A DNA stretch of 64,000 nt, taken from NCBI GenBank assembly GCA_018304465.1, contig JAGVWC010000010.1:64001-128000 (forward strand). The letters run 5' to 3'. The DNA comes from Candidatus Iainarchaeum sp. (GTDB taxonomy: Archaea; Iainarchaeota; Iainarchaeia; Iainarchaeales; JAGVWC01). Made by a program: the position numbers and the translations under genes. Below the pieces are notes generated by a model. That model had not been told where the DNA came from and ran no database searches. It worked only from the letters and a program-made list of their open reading frames with translations. Below are positions 23,808-34,536 of the stretch, piece after piece. Each line of letters opens with the position of its first letter. Within the stretch, counting starts at the first letter, position 1.

Positions 23808-24514
23808 AAATGCCCCAGCGCTTACGAAAAATCGCCGCCAAAGTAAAAAAAATCGTTTCCACCGCGGTCAAAACACAACGCTTAAAATCCAGGCTTAACC
23901 GCGAAATTCGCGCCCTGCAATCAAACCGCAGGACCCATGAAAAAAGAGTCCTTGGCGACATGAACCAGCGCGTCCAACTTATTCACAAAATAAAAAACAC
24001 AGAACCCGGTTTAAAACAGGAAAAATTACGCCGCCGTTTACGAGAAGTATTAACTCAATCGAACCCCGAACACGAAATCGAAAAAATAAACGAGCACTTG
24101 GCCAAAACCGAATCGCAACGCCGAAGACTCAAAAGCGTTTTGCGCGAAAAAAGATTCGGAGGACATCCAAGACGCGATATTCGAGTGCTCAAAGACCGGT
24201 TTCGCACGCGACCCCGGCTTGTTGGCGAACAACTGCGACTCGCGCGGCGCAGGGAAGAATTAAAAGCATGGGAAAAACTTTACCAAGCCCTGCGGGAAGG
24301 CGACATCCAAACGGTTCAAATGCAAAAAACCCAAGAAACGCAAACACGGCAGTCCGAAGAAAAAAAAGGCCGAAGACTCCTCAGTCAATTGGCCGCAAAG
24401 ATGCAAGCCGACATGGCCAGCAAACAGGTGGACGCCCAAACCCAACGAATAATCATTTCAAGGCGCCTCGCCGAATTACGCGTTGCAATTCAAAGAAAAA
24501 AAAGAAAAAAGTGA
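23804..24514 (+). CDS. Highly basic coiled-coil orphan protein
   Basis: 236 aa Arg/Lys-rich; start overlaps kinase stop. Confidence 0.6.
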   Translation: MKMPQRLRKIAAKVKKIVSTAVKTQRLKSRLNREIRALQSNRRTHEKRVLGDMNQRVQLIHKIKNTEPGLKQEKLRRRLREVLTQSNPEHEIEKINEHLAKTESQRRRLKSVLREKRFGGHPRRDIRVLKDRFRTRPRLVGEQLRLARRREELKAWEKLYQALREGDIQTVQMQKTQETQTRQSEEKKGRRLLSQLAAKMQADMASKQVDAQTQRIIISRRLAELRVAIQRKKRKK

Positions 24515-24520
24515 CCGTTT

Positions 24521-24958
24521 TTATTTTCTGAATTTCCGGTCGACTTCGTTGATCAAAACATCACACGCGGCTTTCACGGCTTCCAGCTGCAGGATGATCC
24601 GCTTTCGCTCGTTTTCAATGTCAAGAACGTTTTCGTAGGTTTCGATCGCTTCGCGAAACATTCCACCGTCGACATATGAATACGGATGCTCGTTCATTTT
24701 GGACGTGGTCCGTTCAATCATTTTTCCAAGCCAAATATTCATTTCGTCTTTGACTTGTCCTTTGATTTGTTTTCCCGAATCCAGGTACTTTCGCATCTGG
24801 TTGACCACGGTTGCGCGGGGAAACGGAAGTTTGTCCTCGGGTAATTCCTCGGGAGACGCTTCCACCGATTCGACGGTTTGGCCTACTTCTTCGCTTTCAG
24901 CGGCGTTTTCGGCCGTTTGAACCGCGACTCCATTTGATTTTGCTTCTTTTGCCAACAT
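24521..24958 (-). CDS. Histone-fold protein with acidic N-terminal tail and C-terminal helix
   Basis: LPFPRATVVN.MRK.L...KQI...VK..MN.WL.....R.......Y.YVD...F..AI; GGTGA RBS before ATG 24958. Confidence 0.7.
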   Translation of the reverse strand: MLAKEAKSNGVAVQTAENAAESEEVGQTVESVEASPEELPEDKLPFPRATVVNQMRKYLDSGKQIKGQVKDEMNIWLGKMIERTTSKMNEHPYSYVDGGMFREAIETYENVLDIENERKRIILQLEAVKAACDVLINEVDRKFRK

Positions 24959-25084
24959 ATCACCTTCAAGAAAAACGCATACAAGTAGCATTTTTATATA
25001 CAAAACAAGTGTTACATTCACAATTTAAAGGTGTCGGAGCCCCAAAAAGGCCCTTCCTTTATAAAGAAAAAGGAATTGGAGAAA

Positions 25085-25834
25085 TTATCTCCAATCCTGC
25101 GGAATCGCATATACCGGCAAAAACGTCTTATTCACGTTCGAATCCGGCCAAAACGATTCAATCCGCACATCATCATTTACCGGAAACCAAATGGTTTTGG
25201 TTTCATTCGCGTCCAAATACACGTCTCCGATCAACGGATGCCTAAAAATCAATCCGCCTTCGGCCACGTTAAACGTCCGCACTTTGAGGGTCAACACCAA
25301 AATGCTTCCTTTCGGAACCTGCACTTGCAACGGATAAAACTCCGAATCATCCGCTTGCACGGTTCGCGCCGTGGTTCTGGATCCCGATGGCGGACGCGCC
25401 CACCTTTTTTCCGTCAACACGAACGAAACAAATTCGTTTCCATCCACCGTCACCTGTTGAGACGCGGATTCGAACACAGAATCGTTTTGGTCGCCCACCA
25501 AAACATTCACGTCCAAAAACGCAAAATCCGAAAACAAACCAAACCCGTTTTGATCCGTTACCAGTTGAGCAATTTCTTGGGAATCATTGGCATCCAACAG
25601 GCGAACCAAAGCACCAGTAACCGGAGATTGGTTTTCGTCCACGACCCGCACCGAAACAAAACCCGTTAACGAAACGTTTTGATCCTGATTTTGATCCACC
25701 GGCACGTTAACATCCGGATTTCCCGGCGAATTCGAATCCGAATTCAAATCATCAGGGTTCTGCGGATTCTGCGACTGGGTACACCCAAGCAACAGCAATA
25801 CAATCGCCGCCAAAGCAAGCCATTTCAAATTCAT
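25085..25834 (-). CDS. Lipoprotein with Ig-like (carboxypeptidase regulatory-like) and possible cupredoxin-like domains
   Basis: Lipobox LLLGC, N/P/D linker, V.VVDE...PV.GALV.L...TD.NG. Confidence 0.7.
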   Translation of the reverse strand: MNLKWLALAAIVLLLLGCTQSQNPQNPDDLNSDSNSPGNPDVNVPVDQNQDQNVSLTGFVSVRVVDENQSPVTGALVRLLDANDSQEIAQLVTDQNGFGLFSDFAFLDVNVLVGDQNDSVFESASQQVTVDGNEFVSFVLTEKRWARPPSGSRTTARTVQADDSEFYPLQVQVPKGSILVLTLKVRTFNVAEGGLIFRHPLIGDVYLDANETKTIWFPVNDDVRIESFWPDSNVNKTFLPVYAIPQDWR

Positions 25835-25910
25835 TTTCTATTCCTCCGTTATGCAGACAAAAATTTCTTTCGGCAAATCCTTTTTTAACCAAACGAAATT
25901 GAAAACAATT

Positions 25911-25975
25911 GGCCTCAGTTCGCCCATCTCTCCTCACCCCTTGCGGTCAGAGTCATCGTCAGTTCGTCATCGGCC
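25911..25975 (-). ncRNA. Box C/D-type small RNA
   Basis: GGCC-G-ATGACGA(C)-13 nt-CTGA(D')-CCGCAAGGGG-TGAGGA(C')-12 nt-CTGA(D)-GGCC; terminal stem; TTAAAAA box 29 nt upstream. Confidence 0.7.
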
Positions 25976-26202
25976 ATCAGAATAACTGGATAAAAGGTTT
26001 TTAACTGGGCGAGAAGCGGTGTTAGCGCTGGAATCGTGCCGCCCAAAAACAAGCAATTTCAATCATTTTTACCGCCCAAAGCCACCCCTGTTTCAAAATA
26101 AACCTATATTATTGATTTAATGGCTAATTTAATGGCCTTTGTTGATTTTAATTTGCCGCCCAAATGCATACAAATAAATACTATTTCGCGCATATTCTTC
26201 GT

Positions 26203-27156
26203 ATGAGTTATCTGGAAATAAAAAGACGCAATAATGAACGGTACGCGTATTTTGTCAAGAAATGGTCGCTTCAAGGAAAACGCTTTGTGTTGCGACGGTA
26301 TATCGGGAAAGCGACCAGCATGGTTTCCAAAGAGAGTTTTCTATCTAAAAACATGGGCTCATTGGTCGATGAAGAACTCAATTTACGAAAACCGATTTGG
26401 GAAAAAGCAATTTCCATATCGCATGATCCAAGGCAAATCGAGAAAGTCGAAAAAAAAGCGGTCCTGTTAAACGACCTTGTTGACGCTCAAAACGCTCAGC
26501 AACTTGTACGGGCGGAATTCGCCAAGGAATTCATTTATAATTCGAATAACATCGAGGGATCGCGTATACCAAAAGAAAAACTGGTTGAATTGTTCGAAAA
26601 AGGAACAACGTCCTACAAAAACCAAAATGAAGTGACCGAAGTAACGAATTCAATTCGGACTTTCGAGTACTTGGAAAACGATTTTGCATTCACGCTCAAA
26701 AACATCAAGCGTCTTTATTCGATTCTTACGAAAGGACTGTATCTGGAAAATCAAAACCCGTACCCGCGCGGATTCAAAAAAATCGAAATCGTGGTCGGTG
26801 AATCCAGAACCACTGCGCCTGAAGACGTTGAAGAGGAACTCAAAACCCTATTGGCCTGGAACAAAGCAAACGCCAAAACAATGTATCCCCCGCAACGCGC
26901 ATTCGAATTCCACGCACGCTATGAGCACATCCATCCATTCCAAGACGCCAACGGCCGAACCGGAAGACTTCTCCTGAACAAAATCCTGCTGCAAAACAAC
27001 TATCCGCCGATCATTGTCTATAAAGACAACAAGACGGCCTATTTCAATTCCATCAAGGAAACACAAGAAGGAAACAAAAGCAAATACTATCAATTCATGC
27101 TCGAACAAACCGAGAAGACCTACGACCAAATGATCGGCATCCTGAAAAAATACTAA
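26203..27156 (+). CDS. Fic family protein
   Basis: HPFQDANGRTGR catalytic motif and SNNIEG inhibitory motif. Confidence 0.92.
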   Translation: MSYLEIKRRNNERYAYFVKKWSLQGKRFVLRRYIGKATSMVSKESFLSKNMGSLVDEELNLRKPIWEKAISISHDPRQIEKVEKKAVLLNDLVDAQNAQQLVRAEFAKEFIYNSNNIEGSRIPKEKLVELFEKGTTSYKNQNEVTEVTNSIRTFEYLENDFAFTLKNIKRLYSILTKGLYLENQNPYPRGFKKIEIVVGESRTTAPEDVEEELKTLLAWNKANAKTMYPPQRAFEFHARYEHIHPFQDANGRTGRLLLNKILLQNNYPPIIVYKDNKTAYFNSIKETQEGNKSKYYQFMLEQTEKTYDQMIGILKKY

Positions 27157-27162
27157 AAAGAG

Positions 27163-27206
27163 ATTATCAGAAGTAGATAGCGGTAATAGTCAGTTCGTCA
27201 TCGGCC
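27163..27206 (-). repeat. Island repeat copy (core plus TTANC-N13-GATAA arm)
   Basis: GGCCGATGACGAACTGACTATTACCGCTATCTACTTCTGATAAT. Confidence 0.85.
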
Positions 27207-27277
27207 AACAAAGACGTGCAGGCAGGATTGTTTAAACAGAATTAAATTCCTAATTTCCCCTATCGAATATTGTCTCG

Positions 27278-27670
27278 TTAAATCGACTCTTGTTCGACAC
27301 CAGCATTCATTCGCCATTTGTATAAGGCTAATCCAAGTAGGTATGGCACTCCAAGAGCCCCATAATACAATCCGGCCACTTGCCATAACCCGTAATAGAA
27401 CTCCAATGTACGCGCAATGGCAATTCCTTGCGTGAGAATTACACTGATTCCAAATACAACGGAAAAAACAATTCCGACCCACTTGAAAACTTCCGATAGT
27501 TTTTCAGCAGACGGCGGCCTCCCTTTGCTTTTTACCCCCGCATGAAAAAAGCCGATGGTGATTAATGGCGCGGGAACAAGCAGCACAGCAGAATTCATCC
27601 ACACCTGAAAAGGAGGAAGAATCAAGAAAAATAATTCCGCAACAATAAGCACCACAAGTTCTTGTTTCAT
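27278..27670 (-). CDS. Hypothetical membrane protein (4 TM)
   Basis: Hydrophobic ORF with GGTGA RBS, downstream of MNT. Confidence 0.65.
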   Translation of the reverse strand: MKQELVVLIVAELFFLILPPFQVWMNSAVLLVPAPLITIGFFHAGVKSKGRPPSAEKLSEVFKWVGIVFSVVFGISVILTQGIAIARTLEFYYGLWQVAGLYYGALGVPYLLGLALYKWRMNAGVEQESI

Positions 27671-27682
27671 GTTTGGGTCACC

Positions 27683-28012
27683 CTATGCTATCTTGGTCCC
27701 CGTGTCGAGGGCTGTTTTGACGATTCCGAGCTGGGTTTTTCGTTGCTCGATTTCTTTTGGAGTGTAGCAAAAAGGCTCGATGTCTTGGCCGATGGGTTCG
27801 GTGGATAATTGCAGTATTTGGTCGATTCGGTTTCGAAAGGTTATTCCTTCGAATTGATTAGAGATAATCAGGATATCCCAGTCGCTGTCGTTGCGTTCTT
27901 CTCCTCTGGCTCTCGAACCGAATAGAATGATTTGTGCCGGAAGAAACCGTTGTTTGATTCGAGCCACCAGTTTTTGGACTGGTTCGCTTATTCTAATTTT
28001 TTTTCCAACCAT
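27683..28012 (-). CDS. Minimal nucleotidyltransferase (MNT antitoxin)
   Basis: IILFGSRARG....DSDWDILII...YTP.E. Confidence 0.9.
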   Translation of the reverse strand: MVGKKIRISEPVQKLVARIKQRFLPAQIILFGSRARGEERNDSDWDILIISNQFEGITFRNRIDQILQLSTEPIGQDIEPFCYTPKEIEQRKTQLGIVKTALDTGTKIA

Positions 28013-28368
28013 GTAATCAACTCTTTGGCGTCCATCAAAATTTCTTTGGTGATTTTTTCGTCGTAAGTTTTGGCGGGCAAATCGCCAGCCGCATCAGGAT
28101 AGCGGCTGATGATGAAATCACGGGATAGTTTGCGCGCTTTGGAAAGAAGGTTTTCGGGGACTCCGATGAGTTCTCCGAGTTCGCGCAAGTTATGAAGGTT
28201 TGGCGGGCTTTGGTTTTTTTGGAACATGAAAACGGCTTTCATGGCTTTTTCGACAGCTTGCTGGCAGAGAAAAGCGCAGACATAATAGTATTTGGTTTTG
28301 TAGTTGGATTCCGCAGCCTGCAGGTCGATTTGGGCTTGTTCCATCCATATTTCGATTTCCCGACGCAT
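27988..28368 (-). CDS. HEPN domain protein
   Basis: W..QA..DL..A, F.CQQAVEKA.KA, HNL..L, SRYPD. Confidence 0.9.
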   Translation of the reverse strand: MRREIEIWMEQAQIDLQAAESNYKTKYYYVCAFLCQQAVEKAMKAVFMFQKNQSPPNLHNLRELGELIGVPENLLSKARKLSRDFIISRYPDAAGDLPAKTYDEKITKEILMDAKELITWLEKKLE

Positions 28369-31511: not shown

Positions 31512-31641
31512 CCCTCGGTGCGCCCAGCTTTCGTCATCGCCGTCACGTCCGGCGCGTACGGGCACTAGCGCACTACGTTCGATAGGGCTGCTTGCTGCGC
31601 CTTTAGACCGACTCAGAGTCATCCTCAGTTCATCATCGGCC
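31512..31641 (-). ncRNA. Second box C/D-like RNA copy with long structured insert
   Basis: GGCCG-ATGATGA-ACTGAGGATGACT-CTGA-about 75 nt-ATGACGA-AAGCTGGGCGCA-CCGA; TTTAAA about 33 nt upstream. Confidence 0.55.
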
Positions 31642-32706: not shown

Positions 32707-32750
32707 ATTATCTAGACGTGTTCTGGTTAATCGTCAGTTCATCATCGGCC
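32707..32750 (-). repeat. Island repeat copy (core plus TTANC-N13-GATAA arm)
   Basis: GGCCGATGATGAACTGACGATTAACCAGAACACGTCTAGATAAT. Confidence 0.85.
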
Positions 32751-32789
32751 GTTCAATGTTGTATGCAAAGGAATTTTAACAACTATTTT

Positions 32790-33014
32790 TCATTCAAGCA
32801 GCCTAAAGAATTCGTCTTTGTTCATACGCAAGTCTTCTTTAATGATTTTGGTCAGCAAATGGGGGCCGATGGGTTCGTTTCCATGCACAGGAACTGACGT
32901 CTTGCGTCCATCCGGATGCTCGAACCGATAATGGCTTCCACGTGAACGCGTTTCGACAAAACCAAGTTTTTTGAGTGCACGAAACAAATCGCGTGGCGAC
33001 AAGGTTTGGGTCAA
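32790..33014 (-). CDS. hicA: HicA toxin
   Basis: L.KLGF...R.RGSH....HPDGR.T.VP.H. Confidence 0.9.
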   Translation of the reverse strand: MTQTLSPRDLFRALKKLGFVETRSRGSHYRFEHPDGRKTSVPVHGNEPIGPHLLTKIIKEDLRMNKDEFFRLLE

Positions 33015-33017
33015 AAA

Positions 33018-33227
33018 TTACACCCGAACGATCTGGATTCCCACAAAATCAGTTTTAACATCGACAGGCGCGTCTTCAAGGCACAACAAGATGACTTCCT
33101 TGACGCGTTCAATAAGCGCATCCATGGTTTTGGCTTGGGTATGGCAACCCTGTAATTCAGGAACATCGGCTACGAGCCAACCCGCTTCATCCTGCTCGAT
33201 AATGACTTTAAATTCCCTCGACATCAT
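33018..33227 (-). CDS. hicB: HicB antitoxin
   Basis: F.VIIEQDE.G..VA.VPEL.GCHTQAKT...L..R.KE.I.LCLE. Confidence 0.9.
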   Translation of the reverse strand: MMSREFKVIIEQDEAGWLVADVPELQGCHTQAKTMDALIERVKEVILLCLEDAPVDVKTDFVGIQIVRV

Positions 33228-34467: not shown

Positions 34468-34510
34468 TTATCAAGAGTAGTTCTCGATAATAGTCAGTTC
34501 GTCATCGGCC
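34468..34510 (-). repeat. Island repeat copy at right border (core plus near-palindromic arm)
   Basis: GGCCGATGACGAACTGACTATTATCGAGAACTACTCTTGATAA. Confidence 0.85.
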
Positions 34511-34536
34511 ACAACCAAAGTTATCGGAAAAAAAAA

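Follow-up and report, generated by a model that had tools for sequence, protein, structure and literature searches.

In the archaeal model of the box C/D ribonucleoprotein (RNP), L7Ae binds the C/D kink-turn and the C'/D' kink-loop of a small RNA (sRNA), a Nop5 dimer bridges the two kinks, and two fibrillarins sit over the guide-target duplexes. The ribose that fibrillarin methylates belongs to the nucleotide opposite the fifth guide base, counted upstream from the box. Small stable-RNA genes are also known in another role, as genomic islands and integrase-less cassette arrays stack at transfer RNA (tRNA) and transfer-messenger RNA (tmRNA) genes. Here we describe a gene that touches on both subjects: a dual-guide box C/D sRNA gene of 65 nucleotides (nt) at positions 25975..25911, on the minus strand, of a 64,000-nt stretch of DNA. 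This whole stretch, referred to as the window, corresponds to C15:64001-128000 of the assembly (G000) of a DPANN archaeon of the order Iainarchaeales, referred to as the host. The assembly holds 1,246,008 bases in 15 contigs, is 91.9% complete and has a GC content of about 0.48; the 12 sequencing runs that cover positions 24500-27500 of the window are all DNA metagenomes, labelled as groundwater and soil. We consider it probable that this is a functional archaeal box C/D sRNA gene, with its own TATA-type promoter, that guides methylation of A1012 and C1359 in the host 16S ribosomal RNA (rRNA).

The nearest described RNAs are the Pyrococcus sR families (RF01139 sR2, RF00095 snoPyro_CD and RF01152 sR1). 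Like them, the host RNA has the order C/D'/C'/D, spacers of 12-13 nt, a short terminal stem and L7Ae, Nop5 and fibrillarin partners encoded in the genome, and these same families are its best sub-threshold Rfam matches. It differs from the Rfam sR families in score, with 22 bits against 42 for the host RNA and 33-41.8 bits against 42-45 for its relatives. It also differs in its guides, in the linker hairpin that many members carry, and in the spacer between the C and D' boxes, which is 13 nt in 26 of 35 orthologues. By every sequence test run, the host sRNA is an archaeal box C/D sRNA that lies outside the curated Rfam families. Our literature search found nothing on sRNA of Iainarchaeota.

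For one of the two predicted targets, the cytidine equivalent to Escherichia coli 16S C1402, methylation is described in all three domains. The modified nucleotide, 2'-O-methylcytidine (Cm), is reported as Cm1369 in Pyrococcus abyssi, Cm1639 in yeast and Cm1703 in human (PMC11542601 Table 2). In plants the corresponding Cm1645 is guided by AtU43, and in E. coli Cm1402 is made by RsmI (PMC11542601). Like these systems, the host RNA is predicted to yield a Cm at the top of helix 44, on the P-site cytidine. The predicted route is RNA-guided, as is methylation of the C1402 equivalent in eukaryotes, whereas bacteria use the protein-only enzyme RsmI (PMC11542601). The likeness between Pyrococcus and the host concerns the methylation site, which in the host is predicted.

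At the level of genome organization, the locus resembles the islands at tRNA and tmRNA genes in that direct repeats derived from one end of a small stable-RNA gene bound low-GC accessory modules, with the intact gene at one end. It differs from those islands in being anchored by a box C/D sRNA gene, whose 5' part, with the C box, supplies the repeat. The gene itself is of an ordinary kind, with the target of one guide corrected here relative to an earlier note made on this DNA, while the sRNA-bounded cassette array could be a new part.

The box C/D sRNA gene and its family in Iainarchaeales

The element is read on the minus strand, so that the plus strand of 25911-25975 shows its reverse complement; all features below follow the minus strand. 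The gene opens with the 5' stem GGCC (25975-25972), after which one G precedes the C box AUGACGA (DNA ATGACGA; 25970-25964). The 13-nt D' guide ACTGACGATGACT (25963-25951) leads into an exact D' box, CUGA (CTGA; 25950-25947), followed by the linker CCGCAAGGGG (25946-25937), which consists of a CC-GCAA-GG hairpin plus GG. The second half comprises the C' box UGAGGA (TGAGGA; 25936-25931), the 12-nt D guide GAGATGGGCGAA (25930-25919), an exact D box, CUGA (CTGA; 25918-25915), and the 3' stem GGCC (25914-25911). All motifs listed in the earlier note were recovered at these positions. The C and D boxes, the D' and C' boxes and the spacers of about 12 nt (here 13 and 12 nt) that mark this class of RNA are all present. 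The C box fits the consensus RUGAUGA at six of seven positions and the C' box fits its consensus at five of six; each deviates at position 5, which is C in the C box, and each keeps its GA dinucleotides. These G-A positions are required for the kink-turn in C/D RNPs.

Signals for independent transcription flank the gene. The TATA-like box that the earlier note placed 29 nt upstream is TTAAAAA at 26004..25998 (minus strand), which is -29..-23 counted from the first G of the 5' stem, and it is likely the promoter of an independent transcript. An A/T box stands at similar spacing upstream of the orthologues displayed. A T-rich run, TTGTTTT, at 25908..25902 (minus strand), 3 nt behind the 3' stem, is likely an archaeal termination signal. 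Given these two signals, the primary transcript would be close to the mature size, for which about 50-70 nt is expected in this class of RNA.

A chance origin of the element is excluded. We searched with a relaxed dual-box pattern, written post hoc (RTGANGA, 10-14 nt, NTGA, 2-14 nt, TGANGA, 10-14 nt, CTGA), and obtained a single match in the 1,246,008-base genome, at the sRNA site, and no match in 30 second-order Markov simulated genomes. The reversed-pattern control likewise gave no match, either in 41 genomes or in 196 genomes. The predicted fold was about as stable as that of shuffled sequences (z -0.56), as expected for guide RNAs, and speaks neither for nor against the assignment.

The protein partners of a box C/D RNP are encoded in the host genome. 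Fibrillarin (230 bits) and Nop5 (200 bits) are both encoded on C15, with the Nop5 gene directly upstream of the fibrillarin gene, and L7Ae was found with 98 bits; all three scores lie above the Pfam cut-offs. The check for these three genes proposed in the earlier note thus came out positive and, together with compensatory changes in the terminal stem of orthologues (see below), bears out its dual-guide box C/D reading.

To describe the family, we searched 40 relatives by pattern and recovered orthologues with a canonical ATGATGA C box and the same two guides in G035, G023, G009, G022, G030, G020, G028 and G027. A strict pattern matched in 41 of 196 genomes of the order, with no control matches. 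Thirty-five distinct members were aligned (alignment A1), their rows having been chosen by a pattern that demands an RTGANGA C box and a fixed 12-nt C'-D spacer, and this alignment was the source of a covariance model, R1. Of 151 genomes searched in the order, 126 gave an R1 match with an expectation value (E) of at most 0.001, as did 48 of the 53 high-quality genomes, mostly with one match per genome. The sRNA family is therefore nearly universal in Iainarchaeales, and the order gains a defined methylation-guide RNA. The host sRNA scored 70.2 bits (E 3.2e-15) and is the only full copy in its genome.

Among the 35 orthologues, the terminal stem has changed in a compensatory manner. Paired cells made up 84.6% compared with 51.3% in shuffles, and double-change cells numbered 57 compared with 18.8. 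The covariation score was 0.834 compared with 0.20 in shuffles, and none of 500 shuffles attained the observed score. Relatedness inflates these covariation figures; slid controls, which retain relatedness, reached at most 0.24. The C box reads ATGATGA in 29 members, GTGATGA in three, ATGAAGA in two and ATGACGA in the host. C' variants (TGACGA, TGAGGA or TGAAGA) occur in 13 of the 35. The C-D' spacer, where it is not 13 nt, is 14 nt in five, 12 nt in three and 11 nt in one, and the D'-C' linker takes lengths of 4, 5, 6, 8, 9, 10, 11, 12, 15 and 16 nt.

Predicted targets in the 16S rRNA

We compared both guides with the host 16S and 23S rRNAs and with the 23 tRNAs that ARAGORN identified in the host genome. 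One 16S and one 23S gene are present, both on C14, with the 16S gene at C14:7126-8619 on the minus strand. The D' guide pairs with 16S 1008-1019 (GGTCATCGTCAG) through 11 Watson-Crick pairs and one G-U pair. These 12 contiguous pairs exceed the 9 nt of complementarity to a stable RNA expected of a guide, and a run of this length was attained by only 1 of 300 shuffled D' guides. In an alignment with the RefSeq E. coli 16S, the site corresponds to E. coli 1057-1068, so that the helix 34 target proposed in the earlier note is upheld. The nucleotide opposite the fifth guide position is A1012, equivalent to E. coli G1061.

The D' guide fits a lineage-specific sequence. Host helix 34 has GGTCATCG where E. 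coli has GGCTGTCG; in the numbering of the host 16S itself, this segment is held by positions 1005-1020. All six genomes that combine this D' guide with an assembled 16S (G000, G028, G035, G020, G009 and G027) read GGTCATCGTCAGC. G005, G036 and G033 carry other D' guides and have GGCCATCGTCAGC in their 16S, and the 16S of G010 reads GGCCACCGCCAGCC. Orthologous D' guides vary only at positions 1-2, beside the box. Based on these complementarities, the D' guide very likely directs 2'-O-methylation of 16S A1012.

The D guide requires a different target from the one first proposed. The earlier note had assigned it to the 23S A loop, but the host A loop (GGAGGTGTTAACTCATTAAAG; U2630, equivalent to E. 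coli U2552), which we located by alignment with the E. coli 23S, is not complementary to this guide. The sole all-Watson-Crick match of D-guide positions 3-10 in the host rRNAs is 16S 1357-1364 (CGCCCATC), which places C1359, the equivalent of E. coli C1402, at the fifth-nucleotide site. Other matches in host rRNA, in the large subunit (LSU) at 619-630, 650, 1578 and 1872, need 2-4 G-U pairs and were rejected.

In relatives the D guide reads GATGGGCGG, which extends the duplex to 9 base pairs (bp), and the 16S of all 10 Iainarchaeales sequences compared reads CCGCCCATCAAGCC. The Iainarchaeales 16S has A at the position of E. coli G1405, with which U8 of the D guide makes a Watson-Crick U-A pair in place of a U-G pair. 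The decoding site of the host, at 16S positions 1355-1370 in its own numbering, is unusual (CACACCGCCCATCAAGCC, compared with CACACCGCCCGTCACACC in E. coli), and the A at E. coli position 1405 is common to all 10 of the Iainarchaeales 16S sequences compared.

The core of the D guide was also found outside the order. In a scan of one genome per species, dual-box RNAs with this core occurred at at least 120 loci, in Methanobrevibacter, Methanobacterium, Methanosphaera, Thermoplasmata, Methanomassiliicoccales, Methanofastidiosum, Thermococci, Altiarchaeota and Iainarchaeum records, and every lineage has its own D' guide. In 36 of the 80 D-guide-core loci listed, nearly all of them of Methanobacteriales type (Methanobrevibacter, Methanobacterium and Methanosphaera), the D' guide is always ACCCTATGAGCT. 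Ten relatives from other lineages all scored under the Rfam gathering score. Because the same D-guide core is present in methanogens, Thermoplasmata and Altiarchaeota, RNA-guided formation of Cm1402 may be an old archaeal trait that has been widely kept; it is not mentioned in the hyperthermophile surveys consulted. In our literature search, box C/D, archaea and C1402 were not found treated together. Taken with the comparison among lineages, the host pairing suggests that the D guide likely directs 2'-O-methylation of C1359.

On the archaeal RNP architecture, the sRNA would adopt two kinks: the GGCC/GGCC stem would close a terminal C/D kink-turn, and the small hairpin would close an internal C'/D' kink-loop. 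The folded RNA would bind L7Ae, Nop5 and fibrillarin. The D' guide, placed on helix 34, would then direct a 2'-O-methyl group to A1012 (E. coli 1061), and the D guide, placed on the top of helix 44, would direct one to C1359, the equivalent of the P-site nucleotide E. coli C1402. Since the two predicted sites belong to one rRNA and are both in its decoding region, the sRNA may also bridge the two 16S segments during 30S assembly, which we offer as speculation.

Several observations weigh against this reading, most of them against the role of the D guide, and they would favour a real C/D sRNA in which the D' guide alone guides methylation and the D guide is an orphan, has another target, or serves as a chaperone or scaffold arm. 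In the host, the D-guide duplex is 8 bp long and mismatched at positions 1-2. Because an 8-bp run was attained by 203 of 300 shuffled D guides, the C1402 assignment depends on comparison and not on the host sequence alone. The comparison has weak points of its own: the core GATGGGCG was fixed by the search patterns, so that its conservation is partly by construction; position 2 is mismatched in most lineages, being A in 66 of 72 non-Iainarchaeal loci, a conserved mismatch to C1399; and internal mismatches occur in G010 (GATGAGCGG) and G033 (GATTGGCGG), in which the 16S is unchanged. The target set consisted of the rRNAs and the 23 ARAGORN tRNAs, which leaves room for another partner among intron-bearing tRNAs or other RNAs. 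Predictions for archaeal helix 44 are sparse, and the C1402 site is unmentioned, in the passages of PMC4644070 consulted. An orphan D guide would leave unexplained, however, why the guide core recurs in C/D RNAs of distant archaea and why position 11, which the patterns left free, is T in 67 of the 72 non-Iainarchaeal loci, where it would pair with A1408. The predicted site, moreover, falls exactly on a nucleotide whose ribose methylation is recorded in all three domains (PMC11542601 Table 2). We therefore regard an orphan D guide as unlikely and prefer a dual-guide RNA that acts on both A1012 and C1359.

The remaining doubts concern the gene as a whole. No Rfam family attains its gathering score with the host RNA (the best, RF01139 sR2, gives the 22 bits against 42 mentioned above), and a scan of the window at gathering thresholds returned a tRNA only; the best sub-threshold matches are nearly all archaeal C/D families. 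The C box AUGACGA is unique to the host among the 35 orthologues and the C' box departs from consensus, and the activity of the host sRNA could be reduced by these changes. Taken further, they might indicate a decaying or weakened gene in which the position-5 changes, U to C in the C box and U to G in the C' box, impair the kink-turn and recombination is scrambling the locus. The four truncated copies nearby fit such a history, as does the second C/D sRNA of the host, which also has degenerate C and D' boxes. The sheared G-A positions are nevertheless intact in all four boxes, and position 5 varies elsewhere in the family (ATGAAGA in two C boxes, and the C' variants in 13 of the 35). No damage is seen in either guide, in the 4-bp stem, in the promoter box or in the T-run of what is the sole full copy in the genome, and we think decay very improbable. 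A short peptide in place of an RNA would have to come from the open reading frame (ORF) at 25915..26052 on the minus strand, which would encode 45 amino acids, or 20 (MADDELTMTLTARGEERWAN) from the ATG. The frame is open, and the five copies differ by synonymous-looking changes (GAC/GAT, ACT/ACG). Conservation lies on the boxes and guides, however, with flanks that change in a compensatory base-pairing manner, and the apparent stop is the UGA of the D box. The linkers of 4-16 nt in orthologues do not keep the reading frame, their lengths not being multiples of three, and this rules out the 45-amino-acid ORF as a conserved feature. A peptide is accordingly the least credible of these explanations, with next to no chance of being correct.

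Partial copies of the gene and an adjacent accessory-gene island

The earlier note described the sRNA gene as anchoring the island, and this description finds good support, in that four fragments from the 5' end of the gene split up the low-GC accessory stretch beside it. The first ~27 nt of the gene, (T/C)GGCCGATGAYGAACTGA..AT.A, are present in five copies in the genome, each behind an A/T box. All five are on the minus strand of the window, at 25975 (the full gene), 27207, 31641, 32751 and 34511. GC content is 0.39-0.45 over about 25.5 to 34.5 kb, compared with 0.47-0.51 on both sides, and it regains the genome level at partial copy 5. The repeat array is real, and may have arisen by either site-specific or homologous recombination.

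The partial copies, all on the minus strand, retain different lengths of the gene. Partial copy 2 (27164..27207), identified by repeat search, regular expression and alignment A2, has a promoter-like box and GGCCGATGACGAACTGAC, then unrelated sequence, and is flanked by a membrane-protein gene on one side and the end of the Fic gene on the other. Partial copy 3 (31604..31641; R1 28.4 bits, E 8.5e-4) retains the 5' stem, a C box AUGAUGA, the guide with one change, CUGA and GTCGG, and is located 126 nt upstream of a periplasmic-binding-protein gene. Partial copy 4 (32708..32751; R1 E 0.87) has the 5' stem and the C box but only 9 nt from the start of the guide; it follows the HicA stop codon directly and precedes an APH-like kinase gene. 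Partial copy 5 (34468..34511) is the outermost 5' fragment and lies 26 nt after the GNAT stop codon. Copies 2, 4 and 5 have about 25 nt more in common (ACTGACKATTAYC...TGATAA), which the sRNA lacks.

These four fragments divide the 8.5-kb low-GC stretch into four accessory or toxin-antitoxin modules. Module 1 holds the Fic gene (26164-27156, plus strand). Module 2 holds, in order, genes for a membrane protein, MNT, HEPN, an S-adenosylmethionine (SAM) methyltransferase, DsrE, a hypothetical protein, ArsR and the periplasmic binding protein, with the MNT/HEPN genes at 27683-28368 on the minus strand. Module 3 is the APH-like kinase gene, and module 4 comprises HicA and HicB (32790-33227, minus strand) and a methyltransferase. 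Past the last copy lie genes for GNAT and tRNA-guanine transglycosylase (TGT). On the downstream side, the sRNA is followed in order by a lipoprotein gene, a conserved hypothetical gene and a RIO-type kinase, and homologues of the latter two are found 1-9 kb from the sRNA in G018, G020, G028, G027 and G035. In G002, which belongs to the same family, TGT is 8.4 kb upstream of the sRNA. No island gene from between the repeat copies was found in that interval, and the one weak Fic match in G002 is on the other, downstream side of its sRNA.

Metagenomic contigs point to variation at this locus. Contigs of three DNA runs from two studies (X6, X8 and X9, with depths of 8.3, 8.6 and 5.5) join 32757 to 31478; the joint carries 16 other letters, and its depth is above that of the reference form. 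We read it as a co-occurring strain in which other sequence has replaced the core of copy 4, the APH-like gene and copy 3, along with the leader ahead of the binding-protein gene. The contigs from four DNA runs were short and of low depth, and gaps in their cover were not interpreted. A single joint in X10, from 32215 to 24492, had a depth of 2.4 and was not used.

Eight other genomes of the order hold duplicated or 5'-truncated copies. G018 has two full-length copies 4.1 kb apart that bracket radical-SAM, methyltransferase, AsnC and ParE genes. In G011, G173, G120, G135, G107 and G099, an intact copy is followed, 40 nt to 5 kb on, by a copy without the 5' part, and in G173, G120 and G135 this second copy begins at the D' guide, right after a shared CATCATACATAGAG..CT motif. 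G038 carries a pair of intact copies that are separated by about 2 kb and lie on opposite strands. Where they are long enough, the intervals between copies contain HEPN/MNT, MqsA-like, RHH/UPF0175, HNH and plasmid-type genes. The motif CATCATACATAGAGRGYCTRARTAATC stands directly upstream of the 5'-truncated copies in G173:C54, G135:C42 and G120:C1, which represent two families, and may mark where a mobile module, or else a conserved gene, ends.

We looked for an integrase that might accompany these copies. A search with PF00589 found no gene between the copies in the host genome, nor between those in G018, G173, G099, G107 and G135, and over 151 genomes none of the matches listed was beside an R1 match. 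When R1 was run unfiltered on 50 kb around nine long integrase genes, no match came below E 0.14, and tblastn of three host integrase-like ORFs against 75 sRNA-flank loci (353 kb) gave no match. No recombinase was found beside any sRNA copy examined. A 17-base core was found at 37 loci in viral contigs and at at least 119 loci in metagenome contigs; none of the 117 examined was sRNA-like or fragment-like, and these matches look like chance.

One possible explanation of the array is that the 5' part of the sRNA gene (the stem, the C box and the start of the D' guide, ~27 nt) serves as a recombination or attachment site at which integrase-less modules are stacked in Iainarchaeales. We advance this tentatively and stop short of calling it probable. 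If it is true, the fragments would represent a new class of island anchor, in which a box C/D sRNA gene takes the place of the tRNA or tmRNA gene at a genomic island. In the literature searched, the phrase "box sRNA gene" was not found in connection with integration.

A second sRNA and the size of the repertoire

The A loop, to which the D guide had been assigned, is matched by another RNA. In relatives, it is the guide GTTAACACCT of a second sRNA family that pairs with this part of the 23S. The host member lies outside the window, at G000:C15:164092-164167 on the minus strand, with orthologues that have canonical boxes in many relatives. Its ends pair in a 7-bp stem, GCGGGCC/GGCCCGC, with a TTAAAAA box ahead of the gene and a T8 run after it. 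The C' box (UGACGA) and the D box are good, and the C box (AUGCGGA) and the D' box (UGGA) are degenerate. Its D' guide CGTTAACACCTT pairs with the A loop, with U2630, the equivalent of E. coli U2552, as the predicted fifth-nucleotide target. Both host sRNAs would therefore aim at nucleotides that bacteria methylate with stand-alone enzymes, 16S C1402 and 23S U2552.

In G005 and its relatives, an A-loop-type guide is the D' guide of the same RNA that carries the C1402 guide, indicating that guide pairings have been reshuffled between lineages. Such reshuffling is described in general terms in a review (PMC7994747). The two C/D sRNAs of the host are a lower bound from scans made without a general C/D finder; the reduced genomes of Iainarchaeales appear to keep a very small C/D repertoire. 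As a side observation, FtsJ/RlmE gave a borderline match of 24 bits in the host genome, at C6:51955-52392.

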